A stretch of 64,000 bases of DNA from Escherichia phage garuso: sequence record MN850566.1; one strand, written 5' to 3'. Below are positions 9,550-26,204 of this stretch, piece after piece. The notes below the pieces were generated by a model. That model saw only the letters and a program-made list of their open reading frames with translations. It made no database searches and had not been told where the DNA came from. A program made the position numbers and the translations under genes. Each line of letters starts with the position of its first letter. Position 1 is the stretch's first letter.

Positions 9550-10431
9550 ATGAAAACTGTTATTGAAGCCGTCGTCACCGCACAAGAGAAATTCTTCCAC
9601 ACAGAAAAATTTAATATCATTCAATTCCCATCTGGAGAAATTGGTGGAAACTTCTCTGAAGATTTTGTTAAGTTTACTGAGCGTAATGCTGGTAAGATTG
9701 ATAATGTTATAATTACTGTACAGGGATATGACAAAGATACACTGTTTGCATTAGCTTTGGCTAAGGATGCCGTTGACAGTCTTGTTCCCCAGAAATCAGC
9801 GATGAAAACCGTTGTTTTCGGGTTCTTACCAAATGCTCGATATGACCGCCACATGTTCAAAGGTGATGCAGCAGCACTGAAAGTCTTTGCCAACCTAGTT
9901 AATGCAATGGGTTTTGATGCAGTATGTGCTCTTGACCCTCACAGTAATGTTGCAGAAAACTTATTTAAGTGCTTTCAAAGCATGAAGCAAAAAGATGTGG
10001 CAGTACACTTTGCAAGTGACCCACGCATTGATTTCTTGGTAGCCCCAGATGCAGGTGCAGCTAAGAAGACTGAAGATACCGCTAAAGAGGTGGATAAACC
10101 GTATATCACAATGTCTAAGGTGCGCAATCTTAAGACTGGTGAAATTACTGGTATGCGAATCCTTGATGATGTTGATTTGACAGATAAAACTGTCATGATT
10201 CTGGATGATATTTGTGATGGAGGCCGAACCTTCGTAGAGGCAGCTAAACACCTACGTGAAGCAGGTGCAAAACGTGTGGAACTCTATGTAACTCATGGTA
10301 TTTTCTCTAAAGGTGTTGAAAACTTACTTGACAACGGTATTGACCATATCTACACTACAAACACTTTAGGTGAAGCTAAAGACCGTGGCTTAACACATTA
10401 CGCCCAAGTTACTGTAGCAACCATTGATTGA
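9550..10431 (+). CDS. Ribose-phosphate pyrophosphokinase (Prs)-like protein
   Basis: ATG 9550 inside track ORF 9535..10431; type-I phosphoribosyltransferase signature (VMILDDICDGGRTFVEAAKHLREAGAKRV); directly upstream of the NAMPT-like gene. Confidence 0.75.
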   Translation: MKTVIEAVVTAQEKFFHTEKFNIIQFPSGEIGGNFSEDFVKFTERNAGKIDNVIITVQGYDKDTLFALALAKDAVDSLVPQKSAMKTVVFGFLPNARYDRHMFKGDAAALKVFANLVNAMGFDAVCALDPHSNVAENLFKCFQSMKQKDVAVHFASDPRIDFLVAPDAGAAKKTEDTAKEVDKPYITMSKVRNLKTGEITGMRILDDVDLTDKTVMILDDICDGGRTFVEAAKHLREAGAKRVELYVTHGIFSKGVENLLDNGIDHIYTTNTLGEAKDRGLTHYAQVTVATID

Positions 10432-10476: not shown

Positions 10477-12258
10477 ATGACTAAATCACTTTACGCAGTA
10501 CCAGCAGGTCTTAATGCAGATGCTTACAAGGCATCACATATATATCAGTATCCAGATGCTACGCAATATCTTATGTTGAACCTGACACCACGTAGTGATA
10601 AATGGTTTAACAGCCCTTTGGCAATTGACGGTGTAGTGGCTTTTGGTATTCAACGTTTCGTTAAAGATTACTTGATAGACCACTGGAACGCCACTTTCTT
10701 TGAACGTGATAAAAAAGAAGCCATTGATGAAATCTTAGAAATCATGAATGGTGTTCTGGGTAAAGATGCTATCGGTCGAGAGCACTGGGAAGCACTTCAC
10801 GACTTAGGTTATCTACCAGTTGAAGTATACGCTGTAGAAGAAGGTACAGTTGTCCCTATGCGCGTCCCAATGATTGTCTTCCAGAACACTGTTTCAGGCT
10901 TCCATTGGGTAGCGGGGTATCTGGAAGATGCTTTCTCTGCTGAGATTTGGAAGGCTTGTACCATTGCAACTATTGCATTGCACTACAAACGTATCTGTAA
11001 GAAGTGGGCTGACCTTACTTGTGACAACGACTTGCATTTGCCTTATCAGTGCCATGACTTTGCTATGCGTGGTATGTCCGGCTTTACTGATGACGCATTT
11101 AACGCTGTAGGCCACTTAACCAGCTTTAAAGGAACTGATAGCTTCCCTGCTGTGTATACGGCTAAACGAATCTATGGACAGTCCTACCCAATCTCTGATA
11201 TTGGTAGCTCTGTACCAGCCACTGAGCACTCTGTAATGTGTGCAAACATTGCTTGGGAAGGTGGTAATGAGTTGATTGAAGAAGAAAGACGCTTTAAAGG
11301 TGAGTTACAAACCTTCCGTCGTTTCTTAACAGAAACTTACCCAACTGGTATTGCAAGTGTTGTTTCAGACACTTATAACTTCTGGAGAACTGTGTCAGAA
11401 ATTTTACCAGCACTTCGTAAAGAAATTATGGAACGTGATGGCAAACTGGTAATTCGTCCTGACTCTGGAGACCCTGTACATATTGTCACAGGTTATAAAG
11501 CAATCCACTTAGAATGTGCTAAAAAGGCTTATTACGAGCACCTAAGCAAGCTGGAAGCCAGTGACACAATGTTGAATGCTGTTCTGAACATGAAGCTTGA
11601 AAATATCAACTATGGTATTGCTGGATGGCTACTGTCAGAAGGCTACGAAATGGTTGTTGACAGAGAAGACTTTGAAGTTGCTGATACAGTGATGTTGAAA
11701 AATGCTTATATGGTTGGTTCTGCAAACGTTGTAACACGTCCTGTAGCTGAGATTGATGGAGCTATTAAGACACTGTACAACATTTTTGGGGGAACTATTA
11801 ACTCTAAAGGGTTTAAGGTACTGGATGAGCATATCGGACTTATCTATGGTGACTCTATCACGCTGGAACGTGCAAACGAAATCCTGAAGCGTCTGTATGA
11901 AATGGGGTTTGCAAGCTCTAACGTGGTGTTTGGTGTAGGCTCTTACACTTACCAGTACATGACTCGTGACACCTTTGCATTTGCTGTCAAAGCAACTCTT
12001 GCAAGCATTGGTGGCAAAGAGATTATGCTTGCAAAAGACCCTAAAACAGATAGTGGTGTTAAGAAATCTGCCTTTGGTGGTGTAGCGCCTATGTGGGATG
12101 GTGATAAGTTGAAAGCTGTAGATGGCTATGGAATACAGAGTTTTGCAGATGCACTTGAACACCCAGCTTGTGCTTTACGTTTAGTCTTTAGCGACTCTGA
12201 GCAGTTCGGTTATACAACTCTTGGTGATATTCGAAATAATATTGACAAGCAGCTTTAA
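10477..12258 (+). CDS. Nicotinamide phosphoribosyltransferase (NAMPT/NadV)-like protein
   Basis: 593-aa ORF; N-terminal NAMPT-like motif (…DAYKASHIYQYP…); GAGAGAG RBS; terminator downstream at about 12273-12296. Confidence 0.75.
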   Translation: MTKSLYAVPAGLNADAYKASHIYQYPDATQYLMLNLTPRSDKWFNSPLAIDGVVAFGIQRFVKDYLIDHWNATFFERDKKEAIDEILEIMNGVLGKDAIGREHWEALHDLGYLPVEVYAVEEGTVVPMRVPMIVFQNTVSGFHWVAGYLEDAFSAEIWKACTIATIALHYKRICKKWADLTCDNDLHLPYQCHDFAMRGMSGFTDDAFNAVGHLTSFKGTDSFPAVYTAKRIYGQSYPISDIGSSVPATEHSVMCANIAWEGGNELIEEERRFKGELQTFRRFLTETYPTGIASVVSDTYNFWRTVSEILPALRKEIMERDGKLVIRPDSGDPVHIVTGYKAIHLECAKKAYYEHLSKLEASDTMLNAVLNMKLENINYGIAGWLLSEGYEMVVDREDFEVADTVMLKNAYMVGSANVVTRPVAEIDGAIKTLYNIFGGTINSKGFKVLDEHIGLIYGDSITLERANEILKRLYEMGFASSNVVFGVGSYTYQYMTRDTFAFAVKATLASIGGKEIMLAKDPKTDSGVKKSAFGGVAPMWDGDKLKAVDGYGIQSFADALEHPACALRLVFSDSEQFGYTTLGDIRNNIDKQL

Positions 12259-12805: not shown

Positions 12806-12833
12806 TTTAACAGTAAACTAAGAGGAAAGTATT

Positions 12834-15200
12834 ATGCGCATGGTAAACGACCACGCAGAAGTGATTAAGAGTTCAACTTCTTTGGAGACATCTCAAGCAC
12901 AGATTACAATGACACCTGAAATGTTCAGCCTTTTGAGTTCAGGTGTATACACATTCAAAGAAAGGGCAGTGATTCGTGAACTGTCATGTAACGCAGTAGA
13001 TGCTCAAAAAGAAGCTGGAAAAGAGAACATCCCATTCCATGTGCATTTACCTACTCGATTTGAGCCTTACTTTGAAGTCCGTGACTTTGGAACTGGTTTA
13101 ACCCATGACAAAGTAATGAGTTTGTATCTGAACTATGGGGCTTCTACGAAGAATGACTCCAATGATTACATTGGTGCAATGGGTATCGGCTCAAAATCCC
13201 CATTTGCAATTGCTCAGTCATTCACAGTATCTAGCTATGTTGATGGTGTTGTTAATAAGTACTCTGTTTACCTTGAGAATGGTATCCCTCAAGTAACTAA
13301 GCTTACTACCAACCCAACAAATGAACCCAATGGTTTAGCTGTACGTGTGGCAGTTGCTGACCATCGTATTTCAAAGTTCTTTGAAGAGGCTGGTCACGTA
13401 TACTCATACTTTGCTGTAAAACCAGAAAGTAACATTGTGTATGATGATGTATTAGCAGATATGAATGTCATTGCCCGTGAAGAGGGTGTTTATGATGCTA
13501 TGATTCATAAGCAAAGCTGGCGTTCTAGTGGCAACAGGACAGAGTTTAATGTGGTGATGGGTAATATTGCCTACCCAGTGAACATGGAAGCATTACTTGG
13601 TGATGATTTCTTCAAAGTCTTGCCAGAGTTTTTCCGTAGGAGCGTAGACCTTGTAAACATCTACATGCCTATTGGTTCAGTGGCTATTGCAGCTTCTCGT
13701 GAAGCATTGCAGATGAATGACACGACAAAAAATGTTATCATTGAGGCTACTAAAAAGATAACTGAAGCCATTACAAAGGATGTTATCAAGAAAGTTAACA
13801 ACCAACCTACACTCATGGATGCTGCACAGGCTTATGCTGAGTTACGTTTGAACTCACGAGAGATGTTTAATGCTGTGTGTCCAAAGCTAGAGTGGGGAGG
13901 CATTAAGCTTGATTCTCTGGAAGAAGAATTACTAAACATTCGTCGTGGGATTATCTACGCAGAAGACGGCTCAGTCATTTATGAACGTGACGGTAAAGGT
14001 AATATCAAGGTTGATAGGAACGGGAACAATATCCCTAAAGTGGATTATCTTTATAATCCAGTTGCTTATGTCAAGTTCAACTCTTTAGAGAGTAAGATTC
14101 GTGCAGCAGCACTTTCCTACACTCAAGAGGCAAGTATGTTCAATATCTTTGGTGCAATGCGTAAAAGCCAAATTGAACAGTTTTTGTTCGTGATTAATGA
14201 CCGTCGTAATAAAAATGGCACTGAGAAGACTGTAGGCCGCAATCAGATTCTGCGTGGTGCATGTCGAGACTACGCTAGCGAGTCAAGCCTGTTCCACAGA
14301 TACAATGGTATTGTGTTTGTATTCTCGACTGAAAAAGAGTTAGATGATTTAATCAATCTACACAAGCTTGATAAAAGTTTGTTAAAGATTGTGAAGATGT
14401 CTGATAAGGAACACCATTATCAGCGTAAAGAAGCTGTGAGGGGTGTTGTAAAACTCTGGAAAGCTGTTCCATCAGAAACTAAAGCTTCATACACAGAGGT
14501 GTCAGAAGACCTAGATACAATTGAAGAACCCCAGCTTTATATCAAGGCAGTAGGCGACACAGTTGATGGTGAATGTTTTTGCTCATCCCCAGAAGATGTA
14601 GCTAAAACAATTGCTAATGTTATAGGAAAAACAGTCTATGTTTTCCGAAAAGCAAATTGGAAAAAGATACCAGAAGACTGGATTGAAGTAGATGAGAAGC
14701 TATTGAATGACAGCTTAACTGATGTTCACTGGATTAATCATAACAGGTATATGACACGTATCTATATGAATGGTGTCCTTGACCTTACAAGTAGTTGGAT
14801 TATTGCCAGAAACTTTACGTTTAATAACAAGAAGATTTCTCGCGGGTATTGCTATTCACGAGATACAAACAAAACCATCTTCTTAGAAGGTAATGAGAAT
14901 GCTGTTGAGGCAATGTTTGGTAAGATTCAGTATGTGGCTGCACCGTTTGCATACACTTACACTATCAGTGTTCTTCAGGATTTGAAGTCATGCCTTGACA
15001 ATGATACAAAACTGTACAAAAAGATTAAGAAAGCGGGTGACCGCATGGTTATCAAACTGACAAACTATCTTTCAAAAAGAAAACAAGAAAACTTCTTGCT
15101 TTCTCATTTAGATTGGAATAAAGTGTCACCCATCGAAGTGAGTAAGTTCTTAGGTTTTGATGTGAAGTGTGTTCCAGAAGGAACTACAATTTACGATTAA
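12834..15200 (+). CDS. Hsp90/HtpG-like GHKL ATPase-domain protein (788 aa)
   Basis: N-terminus has Bergerat-fold boxes in Hsp90-like order: AVIRELSCNAVDA (N box), DFGTGLT (G1), GAMGIGSKSPF (G2); AGAGGA RBS; remaining ~600 aa unassigned. Confidence 0.55.
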   Translation: MRMVNDHAEVIKSSTSLETSQAQITMTPEMFSLLSSGVYTFKERAVIRELSCNAVDAQKEAGKENIPFHVHLPTRFEPYFEVRDFGTGLTHDKVMSLYLNYGASTKNDSNDYIGAMGIGSKSPFAIAQSFTVSSYVDGVVNKYSVYLENGIPQVTKLTTNPTNEPNGLAVRVAVADHRISKFFEEAGHVYSYFAVKPESNIVYDDVLADMNVIAREEGVYDAMIHKQSWRSSGNRTEFNVVMGNIAYPVNMEALLGDDFFKVLPEFFRRSVDLVNIYMPIGSVAIAASREALQMNDTTKNVIIEATKKITEAITKDVIKKVNNQPTLMDAAQAYAELRLNSREMFNAVCPKLEWGGIKLDSLEEELLNIRRGIIYAEDGSVIYERDGKGNIKVDRNGNNIPKVDYLYNPVAYVKFNSLESKIRAAALSYTQEASMFNIFGAMRKSQIEQFLFVINDRRNKNGTEKTVGRNQILRGACRDYASESSLFHRYNGIVFVFSTEKELDDLINLHKLDKSLLKIVKMSDKEHHYQRKEAVRGVVKLWKAVPSETKASYTEVSEDLDTIEEPQLYIKAVGDTVDGECFCSSPEDVAKTIANVIGKTVYVFRKANWKKIPEDWIEVDEKLLNDSLTDVHWINHNRYMTRIYMNGVLDLTSSWIIARNFTFNNKKISRGYCYSRDTNKTIFLEGNENAVEAMFGKIQYVAAPFAYTYTISVLQDLKSCLDNDTKLYKKIKKAGDRMVIKLTNYLSKRKQENFLLSHLDWNKVSPIEVSKFLGFDVKCVPEGTTIYD

Positions 15201-15279
15201 AGTGTTTGACAAGGGGCTTCGAAGCCCCTTAGAATAGCCTTACAAAATGATTTATTAACTAACAAGAGAGAGTAATAAG

Positions 15280-16389
15280 ATGACTACTAAAACTAAAGCA
15301 CAGATTGACGCAGAAATTTACGAACTGGTTAAAGAAGGTAAGCTGACTAAAACAGCTATTGCACAGAAGTTCAATACTTCAACCCGTTCAGTTGGTCGTG
15401 CTGTAGAGCGTCATGAAGCAACCTTAAAAGGTAAGAAAAAGGTAGCTTCTAAACCAGCTACGAAGACTTTGAAGCAAGTTGCTAAATCAGTTAAAAAGAA
15501 AGCTGACAAACCAGTTGAAAAGGTTGTTAAAGAGCCTGTACAGAAAGCTCCGGTAAATAAACTGCATGAAGCTATGCAGAATGGCAACCAGATTGAGTAC
15601 ATGATTACTGGCGACTCTGTTATCATGACTTTCGGTGCAGATTCTGAAATCGTTGAATCTACCCATCCGAACTACAAAGAAATCGTGATGGCTGTTGTAT
15701 CCGGTGAGTATAAGAAAGCTTTCGAACTGATGAACATTCGTAAGTCTATCGAAAACTTCACTCAGGGTGCTATCACCATCAAAGGTGACAAGTTATTCTA
15801 CGGTGCTGTTGAGATGCGTTCTACTCTGGTTGACCGTATTCTTCACATGATGAAGACTGGAGATAAGGGTTTTGAACGCCTTGTGATGTTCTTCGAAAAA
15901 CTGATGGAAAACCCATCTAAAGACTCTGTAGAACAACTTTGGGGATTCGTATCTCACCTTGATGTTGAAATTGATGAAGAAGGCTACATCATTGGTTGGA
16001 AGAAAGTCTCTACTCATGAAGGCAAGCTGGTTGACTCCCACACCTACAGAGTACCTAATGATTTGGGTAACATTGTAGAAATGCCACGTTGGATGGTTGA
16101 TAATAACCGTAACGTGACTTGCTCTCAGGGTCTTCACGTTGGTGCTTGGGATTATGTTCGTTGCTTCTCAGGTGATACAATCCTGAAGGTTCGTGTCCAT
16201 CCACGAGATGTTGTATCTGTTCCAACTGATTACAACGATATGAAGATGCGTTCGTCTCGTTATGAAGTTGCAGCAATCGTTGATAATCAACGTAAAGTGC
16301 TGAAAGAATGGGATGGCAAGACTGAAGCTTTGCATGTCATCGTTGGCACTGCTGGTGAACTAATCTCCCAACGTAAACGTGAAATCTAA
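15280..16389 (+). CDS. Hypothetical protein with possible N-terminal DNA-binding region (369 aa)
   Basis: Track ORF; own promoter-like TTGACA-N17/18-TAGAAT at about 15206-15237; terminator downstream at about 16405-16432. Confidence 0.5.
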   Translation: MTTKTKAQIDAEIYELVKEGKLTKTAIAQKFNTSTRSVGRAVERHEATLKGKKKVASKPATKTLKQVAKSVKKKADKPVEKVVKEPVQKAPVNKLHEAMQNGNQIEYMITGDSVIMTFGADSEIVESTHPNYKEIVMAVVSGEYKKAFELMNIRKSIENFTQGAITIKGDKLFYGAVEMRSTLVDRILHMMKTGDKGFERLVMFFEKLMENPSKDSVEQLWGFVSHLDVEIDEEGYIIGWKKVSTHEGKLVDSHTYRVPNDLGNIVEMPRWMVDNNRNVTCSQGLHVGAWDYVRCFSGDTILKVRVHPRDVVSVPTDYNDMKMRSSRYEVAAIVDNQRKVLKEWDGKTEALHVIVGTAGELISQRKREI

Positions 16390-16404
16390 TAAGTAATTTC
16401 TTAA

Positions 16405-16432
16405 AAGGCTGCTTCGGCGGCCTTTTTTATTT
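16405..16432 (+). terminator. Intrinsic terminator
   Basis: AGGCTGC-TTCG-GCGGCCT hairpin followed by TTTTTTATTT. Confidence 0.6.
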
Positions 16433-16489
16433 GTATTTTGTGCAGAGTGCTGTATAATTGTTGTCACGATAAACTAAACAGGAGAACCA

Positions 16490-17038
16490 ATGAAGAAATT
16501 GATTCTAGGTTTGTGCTTAATGTTTACAGCACACTTATCTTATGCAGTTGACTGCCCAGAGCTATCAATTAGCCAAAAAGTAAACATGTTAAAAGCTTAC
16601 CAGTATGGTGAGAATAACATGGGTAAAGGTTGGGGTATCACTCTAGCTGCTATAGCCTTACAAGAGTCAGAGTTAGGTCTGAAGGTAGAGAATAAAAAGA
16701 CACATGATTATGGTATCTTCCAGAATCACTTGAAGACTGTTGTAAAGCGTAACAAAATTAGTCCTAATGTGGCTAAAAAGAAACTCTTAAAAGACTTTGA
16801 CTATGCTGCGAAGGAAACTCACAAAGAGCTTGAGTTTTGGACAAAGGTGCATGGTCAGCCAAAGTCAAAGAAGACTTTACAAAAAGTTTTAGCATCATAT
16901 AATGCTGGGTATTCGTACAAAATCCCTAAAGCTAAGAAATATTCTCAAGATGTCTATAACAACATGAAAGTCATTGCTCAATGTGAATTTGCAATAAACA
17001 TTTCTAAGGTAAACCATGAAAAAATTAAAAAAGTCTGA
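16490..17038 (+). CDS. Secreted lytic transglycosylase-like protein (SLT domain)
   Basis: N-terminal signal peptide (MKKLILGLCLMFTAHLSYA) and SLT-like catalytic region (…LAAIALQESELG…). Confidence 0.55.
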   Translation: MKKLILGLCLMFTAHLSYAVDCPELSISQKVNMLKAYQYGENNMGKGWGITLAAIALQESELGLKVENKKTHDYGIFQNHLKTVVKRNKISPNVAKKKLLKDFDYAAKETHKELEFWTKVHGQPKSKKTLQKVLASYNAGYSYKIPKAKKYSQDVYNNMKVIAQCEFAINISKVNHEKIKKV

Positions 17039-17711
17039 TGAAGTACTGTGTCATGCTTACGACTTACATCCTCATGAGTTAGGTCTTGATTCCTGTGTAT
17101 GGACTCCAGAACAGTGTAGGGATTTTGAAGACACTGCAAGAGAAGTTGTATGTTCACTCGAAGAGTTCCACACATCAGAGCCAATTGTGAATGTTGTAGA
17201 TAAAGAGACTGGACAAACTATAGGTGTAAGTCGTGATAGCTTAGTCATAGTCAATAAAGACCTTGTAGAAAAAGGTAACCTCATCTTAGCAGATATTGAT
17301 GGTGTTCTTACAAATTTTAATCACGAAGATTGCTCAACGGAATTGACTGATGGGTCATTCTCACAGTACACTAATCTTCTTGACTCTGTAAGAGCAAAAC
17401 CAACGTATGTCTTTAGTATTATTGATGCAATTGCTAATCATGCTGCCGTTGGACTCTTGACAGCGAGAGGCGAATCTCAGAGAATACCTACTGAGATGTT
17501 TTTAAGGCATAACACAGAGCATGATTATATGCTTTTTATGCGTGGTTTTGGAACTAACTCTATAAGTGCAGAAAGTTTGAAAGTGAGGATGATTCAGTCT
17601 TGCATTCTGCCTTACTTTAATATAGTATGTTTTATAGAAGATACAGAGAAGAATGTGCAGAAGGTGAATAGAATCCTTCCACACATCAAAACCATGTTAG
17701 TTAAACATTGA
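17016..17711 (+). CDS. Hypothetical protein with possible HAD-like phosphatase motif
   Basis: Track ORF; motif ILADIDGVLTNF resembles HAD motif I (DxDGxL); weak. Confidence 0.4.
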   Translation: MKKLKKSDEVLCHAYDLHPHELGLDSCVWTPEQCRDFEDTAREVVCSLEEFHTSEPIVNVVDKETGQTIGVSRDSLVIVNKDLVEKGNLILADIDGVLTNFNHEDCSTELTDGSFSQYTNLLDSVRAKPTYVFSIIDAIANHAAVGLLTARGESQRIPTEMFLRHNTEHDYMLFMRGFGTNSISAESLKVRMIQSCILPYFNIVCFIEDTEKNVQKVNRILPHIKTMLVKH

Positions 17712-17721
17712 GAGAAAACTT

Positions 17722-18186
17722 ATGAACAATATCATTACGGTAGCACTGGACGTTACGGCAAACAAATCTGAAGTAGTTCGTAACATTATCAAGAACAACT
17801 TTGAGGGTAAAATCTTTCGTGCTGTCAACGTAAAAGCAGACGGTAACATCAGAGAGTATCGTGCTCTTTTGAATGTTAAGAAACACGTCAAAGGTGCTGG
17901 TTCAACGACTGCACACAAAGAAAACCTGATGACTATCTATGATATGGGTATGGCTTCAGAGTTAGGTGCTGAAGGTATCGTTAAAGAAGGTGCTCCGTAT
18001 CGCTCTTTCAATCTGGAAACTGCTCTCATGCTTTCCTTTACAAGTGGTTCTAAAACAACTACTTATCTCTTTACTGATGCTGCAACGGTATCTGCTATCA
18101 AGGATAACGCTATCAAAGCTGGGGTAGCTGCTGCTGCAAAAGCTTCTTCGATGGCTGCAAATGTCCTTGCTAAAGTCCTCGGTTAA
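17722..18186 (+). CDS. Hypothetical protein (154 aa)
   Basis: Track ORF with GAGAAAA RBS; Ala-rich C-terminus; terminator at about 18198-18223. Confidence 0.45.
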   Translation: MNNIITVALDVTANKSEVVRNIIKNNFEGKIFRAVNVKADGNIREYRALLNVKKHVKGAGSTTAHKENLMTIYDMGMASELGAEGIVKEGAPYRSFNLETALMLSFTSGSKTTTYLFTDAATVSAIKDNAIKAGVAAAAKASSMAANVLAKVLG

Positions 18187-18197
18187 GGTTAAGATAC

Positions 18198-18223
18198 AGG
18201 CTCCTTCGGGAGCCTTTTTCATT
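18198..18223 (+). terminator. Intrinsic terminator
   Basis: AGGCTCC-TTCG-GGAGCCT hairpin followed by TTTTTCATTT. Confidence 0.65.
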
Positions 18224-18238
18224 TCAGGAGATTGTTAA

Positions 18239-18586
18239 ATGACATTTAAAGAGTTCTGTCAAGCTACTTTCATAATTGTTTTCTTAGTTGGGGCAGGTGT
18301 CTGGGGAGGATACTCTTACAGAGACTATCAAGTTGCTGAAACTGAGCTAAACAATCAAAAGCTCATAAGTGTTGCTAAAGATGCTTATCAGGAAGGATTA
18401 GTAACATTGAGCACCAATTACAAAAATGATTTGAAGGATGTGCTTGCTAAGAATAAGCATACAAAAGAGGTACTAACATATGAAAAAACTAAGCCAGAGT
18501 TTTATAATGTTTGTGTTACTGATAACTATGTCAGGGTGTTCAACGAACAAAGTGAGCAGTACATTCAAAAACTCCCAAGTAAGTGA
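18239..18586 (+). CDS. i-spanin-like protein (Rz-like)
   Basis: N-terminal transmembrane helix (FIIVFLVGAGVWGGY) followed by a charged region; an o-spanin-like ORF is embedded in its 3' end in another frame. Confidence 0.5.
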   Translation: MTFKEFCQATFIIVFLVGAGVWGGYSYRDYQVAETELNNQKLISVAKDAYQEGLVTLSTNYKNDLKDVLAKNKHTKEVLTYEKTKPEFYNVCVTDNYVRVFNEQSEQYIQKLPSK

Positions 18587-18749
18587 GAGTGATAAGTACA
18601 CTCAAGAAGAATCACGGTATATCATCAAAGGCAACACAGGCAGTGATGTAGCAGCAGCCCTTGAGTTCTATCGTGACGGCTTTTACCAGTGCACAATCAA
18701 AGCTAACAACCTTATTGACATGATTTTATTAGGGAATAAGCAGCAATGA
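18480..18749 (+). CDS. o-spanin-like outer-membrane lipoprotein (Rz1-like)
   Basis: Lipoprotein signal with lipobox (…LLITMSGC…); overlaps the 3' end of the i-spanin-like ORF out of frame. Confidence 0.5.
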   Translation: MKKLSQSFIMFVLLITMSGCSTNKVSSTFKNSQVSESDKYTQEESRYIIKGNTGSDVAAALEFYRDGFYQCTIKANNLIDMILLGNKQQ

Positions 18750-19015
18750 CAGAGAATGAAGATACTTTCTATGTAGAAGGTTACTTACTGTTACCACGAC
18801 CAAAAGAAACTTATATGCGAATTGACTTCATACCAACCATTATGGATAATGTGATGTGTCATATCTTTATGCAAGGTGTCACAGCACAGCTTAAGCATGT
18901 CGGTAAAGACTGCAAAATAAAGGTTGACACTCATCCAGAAATCAAAGAGAATCACTACACATGGTTCTTACCAGACTCTAAAGAAATCTTAGCAGTTCTC
19001 AAAACGAGGAAGTAA
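18746..19015 (+). CDS. Hypothetical protein (89 aa)
   Basis: Track ORF; start overlaps upstream stop. Confidence 0.45.
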   Translation: MTENEDTFYVEGYLLLPRPKETYMRIDFIPTIMDNVMCHIFMQGVTAQLKHVGKDCKIKVDTHPEIKENHYTWFLPDSKEILAVLKTRK

Positions 19016-19017
19016 CT

Positions 19018-19344
19018 ATGCAGATTAATGGAAGAGACTTTGTAGCCGTTTACTACGAGAAAGGTAAAGAGGTTGGTGTAGCACAAGTAACTTATGGCAA
19101 TGGTAAGTGGCTGTATGGAACAATCGCAGTAGTAGGAACAAGAAGTGATACAAAAACTTTTAAAGATTGTGTTGACCTTCTTGAAGAATCCATCCACAAT
19201 CATTGGTGTCTGATATGGATGACTGACAATGAAGTGATGGAACGTTTCAAAAAGATTGATATCAACATAGACAGCATTGAGCATGTTGACTTGTATGAAC
19301 TGACTGAGAAGGTAAATTATGAAAGTAATTCTAGCCAGAGATAA
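19018..19344 (+). CDS. Hypothetical protein (108 aa)
   Basis: Track ORF. Confidence 0.45.
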   Translation: MQINGRDFVAVYYEKGKEVGVAQVTYGNGKWLYGTIAVVGTRSDTKTFKDCVDLLEESIHNHWCLIWMTDNEVMERFKKIDINIDSIEHVDLYELTEKVNYESNSSQR

Positions 19345-19546
19345 AAAGACACGGAAAATTATCCGGTCAGCAGTATTTATTGGAAGAAATGAAGTGATTC
19401 CTTTTACAGCAAATGATGTGATAGTCTACAGGAAAAAATTAGCATTCAGTTATTGCTTACGTGGCTTTATCTCCCAGCCATTAGAAGATTTTAAAAATCG
19501 TTGTGGTAAAGGCATCATCATTCAAGAGGCAATTATTCATGGCTGA
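19319..19546 (+). CDS. Hypothetical protein (75 aa)
   Basis: Track ORF overlapping neighbours. Confidence 0.35.
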   Translation: MKVILARDKKTRKIIRSAVFIGRNEVIPFTANDVIVYRKKLAFSYCLRGFISQPLEDFKNRCGKGIIIQEAIIHG

Positions 19547-19739
19547 CTTCTGCAAAGACTGTGCTATCGAGATGTTTGGACGTGATACAGGTGATTTAAA
19601 AGGTCTTATCACTGAAGATGACTTTAAAGCTGGCTATGCAATGCCAGTAATCTGTGAAGGTTGTGGGTGCATCTGGGTAGACCATGAGGGGCAACGTGTA
19701 AAACCTTCAGAAGATAAAGAATCTTGGGAGAGATGTTAA
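19539..19739 (+). CDS. Small Cys-rich protein (66 aa)
   Basis: In-frame ATG at 19539 inside track ORF 19503..19739; CxxC…CxGC pairs (CKDCAIEMFG…CEGCGC). Confidence 0.4.
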   Translation: MADFCKDCAIEMFGRDTGDLKGLITEDDFKAGYAMPVICEGCGCIWVDHEGQRVKPSEDKESWERC

Positions 19740-20525
19740 ATGGGTATTGTAAAAATCATCAATGGTGATATCTTTGCTGCATTTGATAAAGGTAAGTTTG
19801 ACATCATTGGTCATGGTTGTAACTGTATGAACCTAATGGGTGCAGGTATCGCTGATAAGATTTCTAAACTTTACCCAAAAGCATATGAGACCGATACAGA
19901 AGTTTATCTATATGCAGGCGGTATAGGCCACAAACCCTGTGAAAATTTACTAGGTAACTTCTCTGTAGCACGTTTAAAACAAGGCCGTATAGCTAACCTT
20001 TACACTCAGCTTAAGACTGGTAAAGATGCCCGATACAGTGCTTTAGAGTCATCTTTGAAACAGCTTAACAGATACTGTGAAGTCAATCAGTTGAAGAAAG
20101 TCGGGTTACCTATGATTGGTGCAGGTATCGGTGGGCTAGACGCTCAAGCCGTCACAGTTATCATTAATCAGGTGATGAAGAGTGTAGATGTGTATCTGTA
20201 TGTCTATGAAGGAGAGATGTACCACAAGTTACGCTCAGGTTGGAAGAACTACTGTGAACCAGAATACTTTGCAGGTGTAGTAACGTTCACAGACAATACA
20301 GTTACCCTCTTCAGACGAAGAAAAGGTAAGATACATCAAAGTAACCCTCCGGTTGAAAAGATGTCTCTAAGTAACGCTCTAGTTACCCACCTGTCGAAGA
20401 GCAATCACAGGATTGCAGTAACATTTGGTAGTGATGCAGACACTTATATCTATGCAAGAACTGATGAGGGTATCGAGACAGTTTTCTCTTCGCCAGAAGT
20501 TACCTTCTTAGACGCAAAGAACTAA
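19740..20525 (+). CDS. Macro-domain (ADP-ribose binding/processing) protein
   Basis: 261-aa ORF; N-terminal half has macro-like glycine-rich motifs (…IIGHGCNCMNLMGAGIADKI… and …GLPMIGAGIGGLD…). Confidence 0.55.
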   Translation: MGIVKIINGDIFAAFDKGKFDIIGHGCNCMNLMGAGIADKISKLYPKAYETDTEVYLYAGGIGHKPCENLLGNFSVARLKQGRIANLYTQLKTGKDARYSALESSLKQLNRYCEVNQLKKVGLPMIGAGIGGLDAQAVTVIINQVMKSVDVYLYVYEGEMYHKLRSGWKNYCEPEYFAGVVTFTDNTVTLFRRRKGKIHQSNPPVEKMSLSNALVTHLSKSNHRIAVTFGSDADTYIYARTDEGIETVFSSPEVTFLDAKN

Positions 20526-20595
20526 GAAACTCTGTAGAGTATTCACAATAAACTAAGCCTTTCTTATCTGGTAAATTTTTCAGGTAAGGAGGGCT

Positions 20596-20794
20596 TTTTC
20601 ATTTCAGAATTGTGCAGGTATATTTCTATAGAGAAATCTGTAGAGGAAATTTTGAACTCCAAAGAGAAAATTCATTTTCAAACTGTGCAGGTAATCTCCA
20701 AAGGGTTTTTTCATTTTCAAAACGTGCAGAGAAAAATCAGGTCGGGCAAGAAAAATCATTTTAGAATTGTGCAGGTAGGTGGGTGCAGGTGGGG
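20596..20794. repeat. Array of four to five direct repeats, consensus TTTTCATTT(T)CA(A/G)AA(C/T)TGTGCAGGTA
   Basis: Copies at about 20596-20620, 20668-20694, 20707-20730, 20753-20778 plus a partial GTGCAGGTGGGG at 20783-20794; lies between a terminator-like hairpin and the first early promoter. Confidence 0.6.
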
Positions 20795-20983: not shown

Positions 20984-21033
20984 TTGCATCAGACGGGCAA
21001 TCAAGCCCACTTCCTAAACTGGAGATTCAAAAA

Positions 21034-21222
21034 ATGGCATCAAGAAAGATTAAAGTTGGCGATGAGATTAACATCAAGCACGAACACTCTTACAAAATGC
21101 TAACTATACGCTCTTATAAGGTTTATCAGGTGGAAGCTATCCACAAAGATAACACTTTTTCCTTAAAAGGTTATAGCGAACGTTTCCCTGCTGAACTCTT
21201 TGAGAAATGGAGCGCGAAATAA
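21034..21222 (+). CDS. Small early-region protein (62 aa)
   Basis: Preceded by TTGACT-N17-TAATAT promoter (20955-20983) and …ctaaactggagattcaaaaaATG RBS. Confidence 0.5.
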   Translation: MASRKIKVGDEINIKHEHSYKMLTIRSYKVYQVEAIHKDNTFSLKGYSERFPAELFEKWSAK

Positions 21223-21428
21223 TGCTTTACAGTCGTAAATTGATGGTTACAACTAACGTTAACACAAAGGTAAAACGTTTTTACATGCAAATTTGTGGCG
21301 TATGGTCTAGAATATCAGAGGCTGACTATTGCAACTATGTAGAAACAGCTATAAACTCTAATTGCTACCTTACAAGAAATACTAAGAATTTTACAAGGCA
21401 AACAGTGATTTACTATTACGATAAATAA
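21222..21428 (+). CDS. Small early-region protein (68 aa)
   Basis: ATG 21222 overlapping upstream stop (TAATG); track ORF starts at 21207. Confidence 0.4.
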   Translation: MLYSRKLMVTTNVNTKVKRFYMQICGVWSRISEADYCNYVETAINSNCYLTRNTKNFTRQTVIYYYDK

Positions 21429-21429
21429 A

Positions 21430-21515
21430 AAGTACTTTACATGGGGCTTAAAAGTCTGTAGAGTAAGCCCCAGATAAAGAGCTTTACCAACAACCTTAAA
21501 CTAGGAGATTCAAAA
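21430..21515 (+). repeat. Family-1 promoter/hairpin/RBS cassette, copy 1
   Basis: aagtacTTTACA-[GGGGCTTA…TAAGCCCC hairpin spanning the spacer and -10]-cagataaagagctttacc…cctaaactaggagattcaaaaATG; reads as TTTACA-N17-TAGAGT. Confidence 0.6.
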
Positions 21516-21899
21516 ATGGCTTATCGTGCACCGAAATTCATCAACAAAGACAACTTTCGCAAAGTACTGGAGAAGTCACTTGATGAGAATTTTAAAGGCA
21601 ACATTATTGTTGTTCACTCGTTTAATTTCAAGTATGATATCAACGGGAATAAAATCAACCATTACACGGCGACAATGCTAGATGGTACTCTTTCAAGTGA
21701 AAAAGCCATTTTACATGCACTTGCTGGACGTGGTAAAAACCTGATAAAATGCGATAAGAGACGTTATCAGGGTGGCGCATATGGTTATGATGATGCTGTT
21801 TATCATCTTGAAAATATGGGCTATAAAGTAGAAAAAGCTGGGGTATCGCAAATCATCGGGAGCGATGGTTATGTAACAATCTTCAAAATTAACGAATAA
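21516..21899 (+). CDS. Small early-region protein (127 aa)
   Basis: Preceded by family-1 promoter/hairpin/RBS cassette. Confidence 0.5.
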   Translation: MAYRAPKFINKDNFRKVLEKSLDENFKGNIIVVHSFNFKYDINGNKINHYTATMLDGTLSSEKAILHALAGRGKNLIKCDKRRYQGGAYGYDDAVYHLENMGYKVEKAGVSQIIGSDGYVTIFKINE

Positions 21900-21985
21900 A
21901 GTACTTTACAAGGGGCTTATAGTTCGATAAAGTAAGCCCCAGATAAAGAGCTTTACCACTAAATCCTAAATTGGAGAACTTAAAA
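21899..21985 (+). repeat. Family-1 cassette, copy 2
   Basis: Same architecture; -10 TAAAGT. Confidence 0.6.
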
Positions 21986-22243
21986 ATGGCTATTATCAAA
22001 AACGTTGTAATTACCGCAAAGACTCGTGATGACGCTCGTATCATGGCTAAAAAGTTATGCGGAAAAGTGGTTGACAACGGAAAACAATCTGCTGTAAGGT
22101 GGGGCGTGAAGGTTGATAAACAGTTAACTTTAAAACGCAGTTCAAACAACCTTTTTAAAGGTGTAAAAACACTCGGTAAAGTGAACGTGTTCACTAAACA
22201 AGGTTACAAAATGCACTTATCTTTAACTGGCAATTTAATCTGA
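21986..22243 (+). CDS. Small early-region protein (85 aa)
   Basis: ATG 21986 placed by the conserved cassette RBS (…ttggagaacttaaaaATG); track ORF starts at 21971. Confidence 0.5.
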   Translation: MAIIKNVVITAKTRDDARIMAKKLCGKVVDNGKQSAVRWGVKVDKQLTLKRSSNNLFKGVKTLGKVNVFTKQGYKMHLSLTGNLI

Positions 22244-22244
22244 T

Positions 22245-22331
22245 AAAGTACTTTACATGGGGTTTAAAAGTTGATATCTTAAGCCCCAGATAAAGAGCTT
22301 TACCACTAAATCCTAAACTGGAGATTCAAAA
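22245..22331 (+). repeat. Family-1 cassette, copy 3
   Basis: Same architecture; -10 TATCTT. Confidence 0.6.
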
Positions 22332-22844
22332 ATGAAAACTGTAGACGCTACTTTTGAAGTTGTAAAAGAAAAATTCACCATTATCTATGAAGCGGTAAAT
22401 TGCTACGAAGCAAGCCATAACCTTGATAATTGGAAGTTTACAGATGACCATCAAGGCGGCGTGACTGTTAAAAATCCTAACTATCAGCATAATGCATTTA
22501 AATATGCAATCCCTTTGCATTACAGCCTTAAACAGCTTTCAAGTGACTATGCAAAACAAGGCCGGGAAAATCCATCAAAAGAGGCTTACATCAGCTTACA
22601 AAAAGAACTAGAAAGAGATTTAGAAGCTTCAGAGTATAACATTGCCGCGAAAGTTGTAGATGCAAACGGTAAAACGGTTTTAGACAGCTTTTATATTGGT
22701 TACGCTTTCGATTGGTGCTATAGTGACGGTGAGGATTTAGAAGATAGACTAAAAGAAGAGGTGAACAATTCAGACGCAGAAACTGAAGTATTAGAACGTT
22801 TGGAATCGTTGAAAGACTCAGTGATGAATATCTTTAAGAACTAA
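22332..22844 (+). CDS. Small early-region protein (170 aa)
   Basis: Preceded by family-1 cassette. Confidence 0.5.
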   Translation: MKTVDATFEVVKEKFTIIYEAVNCYEASHNLDNWKFTDDHQGGVTVKNPNYQHNAFKYAIPLHYSLKQLSSDYAKQGRENPSKEAYISLQKELERDLEASEYNIAAKVVDANGKTVLDSFYIGYAFDWCYSDGEDLEDRLKEEVNNSDAETEVLERLESLKDSVMNIFKN

Positions 22845-22846
22845 AT

Positions 22847-22936
22847 AGATTTCTTTACACGGGGTTATCAAGCTGGTAAGATAGCCCCAGATAAAGAGAT
22901 TTATCAAATAAAGCCCTTAAACTAGGAGATTCTAAA
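22847..22936 (+). repeat. Family-1 cassette, copy 4 (divergent)
   Basis: Same architecture with more substitutions. Confidence 0.5.
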
Positions 22937-23233
22937 ATGAAATTATCAAATCAAGTGCGTGAAAATCTGAGCAAATTACTCAACAAAATTGATTTTATCG
23001 AGACATCAAGAAATAATCATGATGTTATGGAATGGTTGCACGGCAAAATAAAAGGCCGTCGCGTAGTGATTTGCTTATGGAATAGTTGCAGGGAGTATAA
23101 AAAACCTGTATTGCAAGTAAATATTTATGATGATACTTTTAAAAGTCCAGTAAAGTCTAAAAGTGACTTATTAGAATCTTATGAGATAACTGTAAGTGGC
23201 AAAGTATCACGTAAAGAGGAAACACCATGTTAA
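22937..23233 (+). CDS. Small early-region protein (98 aa)
   Basis: Preceded by family-1 cassette variant. Confidence 0.5.
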   Translation: MKLSNQVRENLSKLLNKIDFIETSRNNHDVMEWLHGKIKGRRVVICLWNSCREYKKPVLQVNIYDDTFKSPVKSKSDLLESYEITVSGKVSRKEETPC

Positions 23234-23559
23234 TGACTGGTATCACTGCAATCATTGCCATTTTCGCGCTATATAAGGCATATAAAGCCTATAATCTAGC
23301 AAATAAGGCAATCACGCAACAGGTTAGCAATAACCTTGTAGAAAGCTTTCTAGGACGTCTCAGTGATGAGCAAATAAAGCGGCTAGAGATGAGCTTCAGA
23401 TATAAAGCCAAAACCTATCAGATAAGTGACATCTTCAAAGATGATTTTCAGTTAGTTGATGATTATAATTCTCTGATAAATGCTTTAAACATCAGTGACT
23501 TGAAAGACTATCATGCTGTAATTGTTCAAGAGTTGAGCAAACGAAAACAAAATTCTTGA
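23227..23559 (+). CDS. Small early-region protein (110 aa)
   Basis: Track ORF; AGAGGA RBS; overlaps upstream gene by 7 nt. Confidence 0.45.
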   Translation: MLMTGITAIIAIFALYKAYKAYNLANKAITQQVSNNLVESFLGRLSDEQIKRLEMSFRYKAKTYQISDIFKDDFQLVDDYNSLINALNISDLKDYHAVIVQELSKRKQNS

Positions 23560-23647
23560 CACTGGTTTTTAGATAGATTAAATTACACATCAACGGGGAG
23601 GGAATGACCTTCCCCACTAAATAAAGTCCTAAACTGGAGATTCTAAA
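23556..23647 (+). repeat. Family-2 promoter/leader-hairpin/RBS cassette, copy 1
   Basis: TTGACA-N17-TAAATT, then leader hairpin GGGGAGGG-AATGA-CCTTCCCC, then actaaataaagtcctaaactggagattctaaaATG. Confidence 0.6.
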
Positions 23648-23920
23648 ATGTATACTACTAACAACGGTCGCACTTTAAATGTCACACTACGTCACTATGT
23701 AGATGGTGTCATGCACTTTGAAGACTTACAAGCTGAACAACATATCTTAGATTGGCAAGTCGCAGGACTCCAAAAAACTGCTACCGGATACGGTAAAAAG
23801 ATTCCAACCAGTTGGAAAGTACACTATGAAGGCCGTTTGCGCAGAATTTATCAGGATGTGCAAAGCAATAGTGCATCGAGTTACATTATAGTAAAAGGTA
23901 AAAAACTGCATTTAGTGTAA
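23648..23920 (+). CDS. Small early-region protein (90 aa)
   Basis: Preceded by family-2 cassette (promoter, GGGGAGGGAATGACCTTCCCC hairpin, RBS). Confidence 0.5.
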   Translation: MYTTNNGRTLNVTLRHYVDGVMHFEDLQAEQHILDWQVAGLQKTATGYGKKIPTSWKVHYEGRLRRIYQDVQSNSASSYIIVKGKKLHLV

Positions 23921-24005
23921 AGTACTTTACAGGGGGCTTATAGTTCGATAAAGTAAGCCCCAGATAAAGAGCTTTACCACTCAATCCTAAATTGGAGATT
24001 CTAAA
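23919..24005 (+). repeat. Family-1 cassette, copy 5
   Basis: Same architecture; nearly identical to copy 2. Confidence 0.6.
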
Positions 24006-24410
24006 ATGGCTATTAATAACCGTGAATTATCAATCTTAAAAGCACGCTTGACCGTTAATCGAATCAATATCATGACGTCATCAGCGCCTGATGAAACATT
24101 GCACAACATTATCGGAAAGATTCAAAGCGTTATCTTAGACGTTGAAAACGTAAAAAGTTCATTGGCTGACGTTGCAGCAGGTATCACGCTAGACGGTGCG
24201 CAATATGAAATGGCTGACATGTTAGGCAAATCGAAGGTAATGAATAAAGAGCTTGATTTAAAAATGTTTCGATTTGCCGTGAAAGTATGGTTATCTGTCG
24301 AGTATGACGCTAATTTTGCAATCGCTGATTTCTTTGCCACTTGGTTACAACGTAATTTGACAAATCATGATTTTCGTGATGTCTGTGATGCAATTTATGC
24401 AGAACTCTAA
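24006..24410 (+). CDS. Small early-region protein (134 aa)
   Basis: Preceded by family-1 cassette. Confidence 0.5.
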   Translation: MAINNRELSILKARLTVNRINIMTSSAPDETLHNIIGKIQSVILDVENVKSSLADVAAGITLDGAQYEMADMLGKSKVMNKELDLKMFRFAVKVWLSVEYDANFAIADFFATWLQRNLTNHDFRDVCDAIYAEL

Positions 24411-24418
24411 AAATTTTG

Positions 24419-24511
24419 TTGACACTGGTTTTTAGATAGATTAAATTACACATCAACGGGGAGGGAATGACCTTCCCCACTAAATAAAGTCCTAAACTGG
24501 AGATTCTAAAA
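24419..24511 (+). repeat. Family-2 cassette, copy 2
   Basis: Near-identical to copy 1. Confidence 0.6.
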
Positions 24512-24715
24512 ATGGCTATTATTAACGGCTTAACCATTGAAACTACACACATCAAAGATATTAAAGTTGGTGATATAGTCCTTTCCCACGGCGTAGAAAA
24601 AACTGTCACTGCAAAGGATATCAAAGAGGATTCTTTCATGGGTAGGACTCTCTTCGGTGATTCTTATTGCTTAGGTTATCTTGCAGTTTTAAAAGTTGTC
24701 AAAAATAACAAATAA
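24512..24715 (+). CDS. Small early-region protein (67 aa)
   Basis: Preceded by family-2 cassette. Confidence 0.45.
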   Translation: MAIINGLTIETTHIKDIKVGDIVLSHGVEKTVTAKDIKEDSFMGRTLFGDSYCLGYLAVLKVVKNNK

Positions 24716-24801
24716 AGTACTTTACAGGGGGCTTGGAAGTTGATATCTTAAGCCCCAGATAAAGAGCTTTACCACTAAATCCTAAACTGGAGATTCAAAA
24801 A
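24714..24801 (+). repeat. Family-1 cassette, copy 6
   Basis: Same architecture. Confidence 0.6.
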
Positions 24802-25344
24802 ATGAAATGCTTTCACGGTACTACTCAAGAAAACTTTATCAACCTGATTAATAATGGTGATAAGCCATCAGGTGCATGGAATTGTTCGGATATGGATGGC
24901 AATTTTTACGTATACCCAGAAAATAAAATCTATGGTGACGATGAGGAAGAGATAGTATCCGAAGGTATTCAACAGGCGTTAGGAAATGCCACTATCACGG
25001 CAGCTTTCCAGATGAAAACCCAAAACATTGTTATCTTGGAACTTGATATTCCAGAGGACGAATTAAATGATGATTATTCTTGTGATAATATGTCTGGCGT
25101 AGCAAGTTTTACAGAATACTTCGATTTAAATTGGATTAAAAAGGTTTACGTAACCGAGTTTAATGCGATGTTTTCGCCTTTTTGTCTTCCTTCATTGGAT
25201 AACCCAAATTTAAACTATCTTGATGAGTCTCTGGAGCTTCTTGCTAAAAGCGTTCAACAGTCGGACAGTATTCAGGTTTTTTGTGACATCATGGATACAC
25301 TGGCAGGAAACATCGCAGAAGAGGATTTAAAGAGCTTTTTTTAA
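24802..25344 (+). CDS. Small early-region acidic protein (180 aa)
   Basis: Preceded by family-1 cassette. Confidence 0.5.
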   Translation: MKCFHGTTQENFINLINNGDKPSGAWNCSDMDGNFYVYPENKIYGDDEEEIVSEGIQQALGNATITAAFQMKTQNIVILELDIPEDELNDDYSCDNMSGVASFTEYFDLNWIKKVYVTEFNAMFSPFCLPSLDNPNLNYLDESLELLAKSVQQSDSIQVFCDIMDTLAGNIAEEDLKSFF

Positions 25345-25410
25345 AAACCTATGCAATCACCTTATAAACACTAATCAGCCCCTTGTAGGGGCTTTTAGGG
25401 GGCTTAAATC

Positions 25411-25644
25411 ATGCTTACAACCGTTTACCTCATCCTTTCCATCTGTAATGGTCATTCATGCGATTTTAAAGGGCTTGAAGAGTTTACAGGAAGTAAAGAA
25501 AATGCTATTCAAGTTTGCCAGATAGCACGGCAAGACTATCCCGCAAGTGATGATATACAATGCTACTTTAAGACAGAAGATAAAGACGGCATCTATTTTG
25601 ACAGCGTTGACGGTCAATATGAAATTATCATTGAAAAAGACTAG
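25411..25644 (+). CDS. Small early-region protein (77 aa)
   Basis: Track ORF; AGGGGG RBS-like sequence upstream. Confidence 0.4.
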   Translation: MLTTVYLILSICNGHSCDFKGLEEFTGSKENAIQVCQIARQDYPASDDIQCYFKTEDKDGIYFDSVDGQYEIIIEKD

Positions 25645-25734
25645 ACAAGCCTGATAAAAGTCTGTAAATTGTCAATCAACGGGGAGGGAATGACCTTCCC
25701 CACTAAATGAAGTCCTAAACTGGAGATTCTAAAA
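25641..25734 (+). repeat. Family-2 cassette, copy 3
   Basis: TAGACA-N17-TAAATT with the same leader hairpin and RBS. Confidence 0.55.
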
Positions 25735-26076: not shown

Positions 26077-26204
26077 TCAATAACTTACAAAAAACTTTTA
26101 AAAAAGTGTTGACAATACCCCTTGACATTGGTAACTTTGTTCGAGGGGGTTTATCTAAAAGGGATTCACTTAAAAGATTCTTTATAGATAAGCTTAAAAA
26201 TTGC

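Follow-up and report, generated by a model that had tools for sequence, protein, structure and literature searches.

A two-domain macro protein of Felix O1-like phages: a candidate Poa1p-type counter-defence hydrolase in genomes that encode NARP1

Escherichia phage garuso (sequence record MN850566.1) encodes a 261-residue protein that joins a macro domain of the phage Poa1p-like clade to a C-terminal domain found only in its own family. The gene lies at positions 19740 to 20525 of the 64,000-nucleotide stretch analyzed here, which we call the window. From the sequence we infer that the product is an early-expressed counter-defence hydrolase, which would free ADP-ribose (ADPR) from a substituent at its 1'' position. 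We put the probability at roughly 0.4 that its substrate is ADPR-1''-phosphate and that it feeds the NARP1 pathway of the phage against RES-type NADases. Enzymes of this kind are known, and orthologues are already annotated as such. The two-domain architecture, the proposed relation to NARP1 in trans and the existence of two discrete alleles are new, and our searches of the accessible literature turned up no account of them.

19740..20525, + strand: coding sequence of the two-domain macro protein; 261 aa from ATG to stop in the list of open reading frames (ORFs); matches phrog_335
19740..20210, + strand: macro domain, residues 1-157, Poa1p-like; from Pfam, profile and Foldseek matches
19812-19814, 19821-19823 and 20007-20009, + strand: key macro codons H25, N28 and Q90; from alignments to Adpp, DarG and TARG1
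20211..20522, + strand: orphan C-terminal domain, residues 158-261; beta-rich, conserved only when fused to the macro domain

The macro domain and its catalytic residues

An earlier note on this DNA, made from the letters alone, had placed the ORF exactly (19740-20525, + strand, ATG, 261 aa). A Shine-Dalgarno-like run (GGGAG) lies upstream, and residues 1-260 of the product match phrog_335, labeled 'phosphatase', with E=8e-112. The DNA of the macro region is 90-95% identical to about 200 genomes of Felixounavirus, the genus of Felix O1-like myoviruses infecting E. coli, Salmonella and Shigella to which the window belongs. Searches with tblastn found the full-length two-domain protein in about 257 phage records, which indicates that the macro ORF is not a chance ORF. 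About 2,500 records match residues 3-160 only, corresponding to the macro domain alone, and these include T4-like phages, in which the gene is tk.4 and adjoins vs. Orthologues carry the similarity-based labels 'phosphatase', 'O-acetyl-ADP-ribose deacetylase' or 'hypothetical protein' in public records, and one record reads 'high-affinity ADP-ribose binding module'.

We aligned 19 full-length two-domain homologues (alignment A1), which served as the source of our profile and of all statements about invariance. The earlier note had reported macro-like glycine-rich motifs in the N-terminal part, and the alignment bears this out, with invariant loops MGAGIA at residues 33-38 and PxIGAGIGGLD at residues 124-134 (core 127-132). 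The Pfam Macro model (PF01661) matches residues 25-141 at 31.8 bits (E=1.5e-7), above its gathering cut-off of 22. When the 19-homologue profile was searched against the PDB, it matched TARG1/OARD1 (1e-11) and the DarG macrodomains 5M3I (4e-9) and 5M31 (6e-7). An AlphaFold2 model of the full-length protein, built on A1, has a pLDDT of 84.3 and a pTM of 0.85. Foldseek matched the model to PDB structures with probability 1.00, giving TM scores on target length of 0.80-0.83 for TARG1, 0.73-0.76 for DarG from T. aquaticus and M. tuberculosis, and 0.73 for yeast Poa1p. The three-layer alpha/beta macro fold is thus found both by family search and by structure prediction, as the earlier note anticipated for a macro protein, and the window protein is confirmed as a genuine macro-domain protein.

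By sequence comparison, the macro domain is a member of the phage Poa1p-like clade that phrog_335 represents. The phrog_335 profile also matches T4 Tk.4 (1.3e-65), the NARP1-adjacent macro protein of Pseudomonas phage PaP1 (9e-61) and Adpp of Vibrio phage Gary (1.3e-49). In BLAST comparisons the window macro domain scores 83 bits with Tk.4, 77 with the PaP1 macro protein, 68 with that of phiAbaA1, 53 with Gary Adpp, 47 with TARG1 and 36-45 with DarG. Tk.4 is as near to NARP1-associated macro proteins (84 and 77 bits) as it is to the window protein. A neighbor-joining tree, of low resolution at its deep branches, recovered the two-domain family as monophyletic (68% bootstrap) and split DarG and TARG1 from the phage clade (74%). 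It gave no specific grouping with the T4 group, which joined the two-domain family in 1% of bootstraps only. Corrected distances from the window protein and two of its homologues (P0009 and P0012) were 1.13-1.36 to the NARP1-associated macro protein of PaP1 versus 1.30-1.47 to Tk.4.

Residues H24 and N27 of Adpp correspond to H25 and N28 of the window protein, in the motif HGCNC. None of the 19 two-domain homologues departs from this pair, and D52, N86-Q90 and D134 are likewise invariant. N28 also aligns to the active-site asparagine of DarG (N22 in T. aquaticus; DarG macrodomain sequences were taken from the PDB). The position of the catalytic lysine, K80 in DarG and K84 in TARG1, is occupied by the invariant Q90, which ends the motif NLYTQ. 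Glutamine is found at the same position in Tk.4 (NLYTQ) and in Adpp-type proteins (N-x-Y-G/T-Q). TARG1 D125 aligns to G131 in both HMMER and MAFFT alignments; Lys84 and Asp125 form the catalytic dyad of TARG1.

The window protein resembles DarG, TARG1 and the chimallivirus AdfM (PhiKZ gp104) in its macro fold, with the TM scores given above for the first two (0.73-0.83 overall). PhiKZ gp104 is a DarG-like macro protein that keeps N23 and K78; it protects against DarTG2 and, in vitro, cleaves ADPR off the thymidines of DNA. With DarG, the likeness extends to a macro-first, two-domain layout, the retained N22 equivalent and a hidden Markov model (HMM) match in the macro half. The differences lie in the catalytic residues, where DarG K80, PhiKZ K78 and TARG1 K84 face Q90 and TARG1 D125 faces G131, in a C-terminal domain unrelated to that of DarG, and in the surroundings of the gene, where the neighbors are small phage ORFs and there is no adjacent darT. 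The NCBIfam model for DarG (NF048014) scores 48.4 bits against a cut-off of 250 bits and is matched at positions 4-153 of 338 only. The PADLOC DarG model is likewise matched only at positions 18-146 of 329, and neither HMM aligns to the C-terminal part of the window protein. An orthologue of DarG or TARG1 is therefore ruled out, given a glutamine in place of the catalytic lysine and a score below the 250-bit DarG cut-off. Because the lysine is missing, filing the protein as a DarG/TARG1-type hydrolase would be wrong, and its residues point instead to a Poa1p-type hydrolase that does not depend on lysine. As a separate observation on DarG relatives, the 406-aa protein of PDB entry 7OMU ('Macro domain-containing protein') ends in a macro domain that resembles DarG, with E=4e-20 to the M. 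tuberculosis protein, and that keeps the FPTK motif.

Yeast Poa1p (PDB 6LFQ/6LFR) is an ADPR-1''-phosphate phosphatase, and it is the best PDB match to the H-x-C-N-C...G-x-G-I-A...YPKA segment in the N-terminal third of the window protein. However, sequence similarity between the two is detectable over about 40-60 residues only, and Poa1p is a cellular tRNA-splicing enzyme that lacks an extra domain.

The C-terminal domain and allele replacement at the locus

The fusion of the macro domain to an orphan domain is conserved, lineage-specific and new. When modeled alone, the C-terminal domain reached a pLDDT of 81.3 and a pTM of 0.74, with about six beta-strands and one or two helices. Judging from the high pTM of the full-length model, it may be packed onto the macro domain. 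The earlier note had recognized no motif in the last 100 or so residues. This was correct and can be extended, since neither an exhaustive single-sequence phmmer search nor a Foldseek search of BFVD found any sequence or fold relative outside the protein's own family. A search with a profile made from 15 divergent members yielded a 54-aa fragment only and missed known family members, so its negative result is uninformative. The aRES inhibitor aRad1 has no similarity to the domain, and there is no aRad1 homologue anywhere in the window.

The only invariant C-terminal residues in A1 are P174 and G179, which fits a structural or binding module better than a second active site. Homologues differ in net charge, with pI values of 4.8-9.5, and thus neither DNA mimicry nor DNA binding is suggested. 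Because Tk.4 and Adpp function without such a domain, we regard it as accessory. It probably binds a partner or a variable host protein and would not be needed for catalysis, as it is not in these relatives.

The macro gene has been replaced in some genomes that are otherwise nearly identical to the window. At one such locus (L005), identity to the window is 94% across 9.5 kb of upstream DNA (window 9825-19325) and 86% across the small ORF that precedes the macro gene and the first 48 or so macro codons. From window position 19883 to about 20577 there is no nucleotide similarity to the corresponding L005 segment (10144-10837), and similarity resumes downstream. The macro protein encoded at L005 (P0009) is 42% identical to the window protein, with both domains and every motif retained. 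In 13 Felixounavirus records this allele is present at 95% identity or more; the next-best matches are about 42% identical, with no intermediates. Carriers of the P0009 type include BPS17L1, Si3, finno, ECML-1 and phiWec172/174/177. Two discrete alleles at one locus in near-identical genomes form the pattern that would be expected under diversifying, host-driven selection. Together, the orphan domain and the two alleles point to an unrecognized interaction at the protein level.

The two alleles also separate a pair of similarly named phages. VpaE1 (KM657822/NC_027337) carries the window-type allele, and VpaE1_ev035 (LR699048) carries the alternative one, 95.7% identical to P0009. This difference may reflect recombination of related phages at this locus.

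NARP1 and the candidate substrates

9550..10431, + strand: Adps, first enzyme of NARP1, ADPR-pyrophosphate synthetase, resembling phosphoribosyl pyrophosphate synthetase; Pfam Pribosyltran and Pribosyl_synth, phrog_619
10477..12258, + strand: Namat, second enzyme of NARP1, nicotinamide ADPR-transferase, NAMPT-like; Pfam NAPRTase and NAMPT_N, phrog_448

The first 45 residues of the window Adps are identical (45/45) to the Felix O1 Adps entry in the NARP catalogue, and the start of Namat is identical at 23 of 25 residues to the Felix O1 'Adps-associated' Namat entry. NARP1 has also been deleted experimentally in the Felixounavirus Bas63. These correspondences identify the pair as NARP1, a consumer of free ADPR. 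The earlier note had described an NAD+ salvage pair; an NAD+ gene pair is indeed present, but it is not the classical NAMPT/NMNAT salvage route, because NARP1 starts from ADPR and nicotinamide to make NAD+. The macro gene follows downstream on the same strand, separated from NARP1 by 7,482 nt and about a dozen genes, past rIIA, rIIB and the lysis genes. Three of three distant two-domain homologues (33-42% identity, from metagenomic contigs) are found in the same Adps/Namat-rIIA-rIIB-...-macro block.

Other NAD-related annotations occur in the genus outside the window. In PP948675.1, positions 56841-58342 (L007 6841-8342) hold two annotated genes, one for a small 'NAD synthetase' and one for a MazG-like 'phosphoribosyl-ATP pyrophosphohydrolase', which directly precede the ribonucleotide reductase (nrd) genes that the window also contains and may represent further nucleotide- or NAD-related functions.

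Work by Osterman et al. has shown that the defence protein aRES, cloned from E. coli, Klebsiella and Enterobacter, converts NAD+ into nicotinamide and ADPR-1''-phosphate (10.64898/2026.01.28.702374). NARP1 cannot use ADPR-1''-phosphate, and NARP1 alone is beaten by aRES. Adpp, a Poa1p-like macro protein encoded in 15% of NARP1 operons, converts ADPR-1''-phosphate to ADPR and restores NAD+ synthesis, and its H24A and N27A mutations each abolish activity against aRES (10.64898/2026.01.28.702374).

Based on these findings, we propose that the two glycine-rich loops of the window protein would bind the ADPR moiety, and that the His25/Asn28 pair, rather than a lysine, would remove the C1'' substituent of the distal ribose to leave free ADPR. 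The main substrate would be ADPR-1''-phosphate, which RES-type NAD+ phosphorylases such as aRES produce. The freed ADPR would enter the Adps/Namat pathway of the phage itself, with Adps as its possible downstream consumer, and yield NAD+. This would amount to an Adpp-like role in trans, 7.5 kb from NARP1. Several observations lead us to this substrate. The protein shares its PHROG with the proven Gary Adpp and with other macro proteins encoded next to NARP1; the His/Asn pair essential in Adpp is invariant as H25/N28, and Poa1p is the best match of the H-x-C-N-C segment. The genome encodes NARP1, which a macro phosphatase is able to restore against aRES. Finally, the three distant homologues lie in the Adps/Namat block, and by corrected distance the PaP1 macro protein is at least as near as Tk.4.

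Gary Adpp (KNV71_gp137) is one of the closest known systems to compare. It has the same Poa1p-like fold, the N-x-Y-[TG]-Q and P-x-IG-x-G motifs, and Adps and Namat as genomic companions. However, it is only 27% identical to the window protein (53 bits). Adpp genes are found inside the NARP1 operon, in contrast to the distant window macro gene, and the listed Adpp-type proteins all lack the 104-aa C-terminal domain.

Several points weigh against ADPR-1''-phosphate as the substrate. The macro gene is outside the NARP1 operon and thus beyond the 'within two genes' limit that defines NARP1-AP, and Table S1 of Osterman et al. contains no Escherichia or Salmonella phage (10.64898/2026.01.28.702374). 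The linkage of macro gene and NARP1 may be only conserved genome order in Ounavirinae. The best-scoring characterized relative is T4 Tk.4/AdfM at 83 bits, ahead of the PaP1 macro protein and Gary Adpp. Gary Adpp is the sole Adpp-type protein that has been assayed, and phosphatase activity of PaP1-type proteins is putative. Moreover, an invariant small-molecule substrate would not obviously call for an extra domain or for wholesale allele replacement.

In a second explanation, the protein is an AdfM-like factor against DarTG2. As such it would remove the ADPR that the host toxin DarT2 attaches to thymidines of single-stranded phage DNA, restoring replication and packaging, and would act as an orphan antitoxin mimic, a role demonstrated genetically for T4 Tk.4. 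The T4 study, the HIDEN-SEQ preprint, gives genetic evidence from a transposon screen and a clean knockout that tk.4 is required for growth on DarTG2; it names the product AdfM and deduces de-ADP-ribosylation of DNA from structural similarity to DarG (10.1101/2025.11.20.689424). Tk.4 is the top-scoring characterized homologue of the window protein (34% identity over residues 3-157, E=2e-24). It belongs to the same PHROG, shares the HGCNC, EAD, NLYTQ and IGAGIG motifs, and is likewise encoded by an early-region phage gene. According to the same source, T4 becomes sensitive to DarTG2 when tk.4 is deleted; this phage lacks NARP1. The window protein gives a stronger match to the macro half of the DarG HMMs than Tk.4 does (PADLOC 3.5e-13 versus 1.3e-9; NCBIfam 8e-13 versus 2.5e-7), and the nearest solved folds, TARG1 and DarG, both hydrolyze thymidine-linked ADPR-DNA. 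The order of a macro domain and then a second domain also recalls DarG, whose second domain binds DarT, and an arms race with a variable host protein could account for the exchange of discrete alleles.

On the other side, the lysine of DarG (K80), TARG1 (K84) and the proven chimallivirus AdfM (K78) is a glutamine in the window protein, and the evidence from T4 is genetic rather than biochemical. The C-terminal domain does not align to the C-terminal half of DarG and has no conserved acidic, DNA-mimic character. Tk.4 is a 155-aa single-domain protein from a phage that lacks NARP1, its anti-DarTG2 role was established in T4 only, and the tree does not make the two-domain family a sister of the T4 group (1% bootstrap). 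In addition, we found no literature report that ties Felixounaviruses to DarTG sensitivity or Felix O1-like phages to macro domains. We consider the AdfM-like role a serious possibility, though one we would tend to bet against. It is compatible with ADPR-1''-phosphate hydrolysis, because the same chemistry could act on the thymidine-linked ADPR that DarT2 places on single-stranded phage DNA, and a dual role is plausible. We give the Adpp-like role a slight edge over the AdfM-like one, and both may be true. The earlier note had suggested that the phage reverses ADP-ribosylation by host toxins or degrades ADPR-derived immune signals, and these suggestions are supported by analogy with the roles shown for the phrog_335 homologues Tk.4 and Adpp.

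The two roles could also be combined in a two-pronged factor. Here a broad 1''-ADP-ribosyl hydrolase would both feed NARP1 and clear DarT2 marks, and the C-terminal module would engage a defence protein that varies among hosts, be it DarT, aRES or some other, which would drive allele replacement. The module would then be analogous, though unrelated, to the toxin-occluding domain of DarG. In its full form we judge this proposal unlikely.

Other ADP-ribose substrates have been considered as well, including de-ADP-ribosylation of protein or RNA (for example, against mRNA ADP-ribosyltransferases of the CmdTAC type), deacetylation of O-acetyl-ADPR and degradation of ADPR-derived immune signals. Macro domains are versatile on 1''- and 2''-linked substrates, the orthologue is labeled an O-acetyl-ADP-ribose deacetylase in some records, the nearest human fold, TARG1/OARD1, has several such activities, and Aravind and colleagues argue that phage macro domains target mainly small ADPR derivatives. 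However, roles of this sort have been shown for no phrog_335 homologue, the deacetylase label was transferred by similarity only, and the TARG1 Lys/Asp dyad is absent (Q90, G131), which leaves this explanation improbable.

It is very improbable that the protein serves in RNA repair, as yeast Poa1p does, by dephosphorylating the ADPR-1''-phosphate released during Tpt1/KptA-type removal of 2'-phosphates together with a polynucleotide-kinase-like protein. Poa1p-like motifs, a phrog_3970 gene 2 kb upstream (17016-17711) that is syntenic in distant relatives, and the 25 tRNA genes of the phage would suit such a role, but the annotation of a complete relative, in which many genes are 'hypothetical' and were not profile-searched, contains no Tpt1/KptA, 2H phosphoesterase or RNA ligase. 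No phage-encoded ADP-ribosyltransferase partner is annotated in that relative either, with the same limit on its hypothetical genes. We would be similarly surprised by a non-catalytic ADPR binder or sponge, or a reader with the C-terminal domain as effector: some macro domains only bind ADPR, one record carries the binding-module label and the DarG/TARG1 lysine is missing, but the His and Asn essential in Adpp are invariant along with D52, Q90 and D134, and relatives with the same residues are active enzymes.

Neighboring features and implications

19539..19739, + strand: small ORF of 66 aa with a CxxC...CxxC motif; phrog_2210, E=1e-40; its stop abuts the macro ATG (TAAATG)
20555..20596, + strand: terminator-like hairpin and T-run; found by consensus scan, 17-pair stem, 30 nt past the macro stop

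The 66-aa ORF and the macro gene are probably co-transcribed and translationally coupled. The small ORF is 98% identical at L005, despite the replaced macro gene there. We rejected it as a conserved partner of the macro protein, because it is conserved within Felixounavirus only and is non-homologous in the distant loci L003 and L004. Its CxxC...CxxC arrangement is zinc-ribbon-like, and it carries no annotation in PP948675. The terminator-like hairpin may end the transcription unit of the macro gene. It is no more than a match to a consensus, and shuffled sequence gives at least as many as this one site.

The macro gene is located just upstream of an array of repeated intergenic cassettes (window 21012-26929), which precede many small early genes and occur in 5-7 copies per family. 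Each consists of a GGGCTTA...TAAGCCCC hairpin, then AGATAAAGAGCTTTACCA, then the conserved leader TCCTAAACTGGAGATTC(A/T)AAAATG. The cassettes are probably terminator/promoter/leader modules.

The phrog_3970 'polynucleotide kinase' gene (17016-17711) encodes a HAD-like protein of 231 aa. The gene shares an overlap with the end of the lysin gene and keeps its syntenic position in every relative examined; its counterparts in distant loci give weak HAD_PNKP matches. Farther downstream, a block of 25 tRNA genes with small ORFs interspersed spans 38045-43522 on the + strand. Directly upstream of this block, at 36464-37879, is the gene for a 471-aa DUF2828/DUF7788 protein, annotated as 'RNA-binding protein' in a relative. 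Within a cluster of genes on the - strand, positions 33501-34385 encode a protein of 294 aa that has two or three immunoglobulin-like domains (Ig_3, Ig_2, I-set).

Among the domains that process ADP-ribose in phages, macro domains are the commonest, yet none had a demonstrated role there until 2025-26. One macro clade now has two shown roles, against DarTG2 and, via NARP1, against aRES. The Felix O1-type protein stands between the two: it has the catalytic residues of the phosphatase, its best-scoring characterized relative is the anti-DarT factor, and its genome encodes a validated NARP1. This intermediate position makes it a natural test of whether one enzyme serves against both defences, and of whether NARP1-AP has been under-counted through phosphatases encoded in trans. 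Because Felixounaviruses such as Felix O1 and Bas63 are genetically tractable and are used in biocontrol of Salmonella and E. coli, the consequences for host range would be practical as well as mechanistic.

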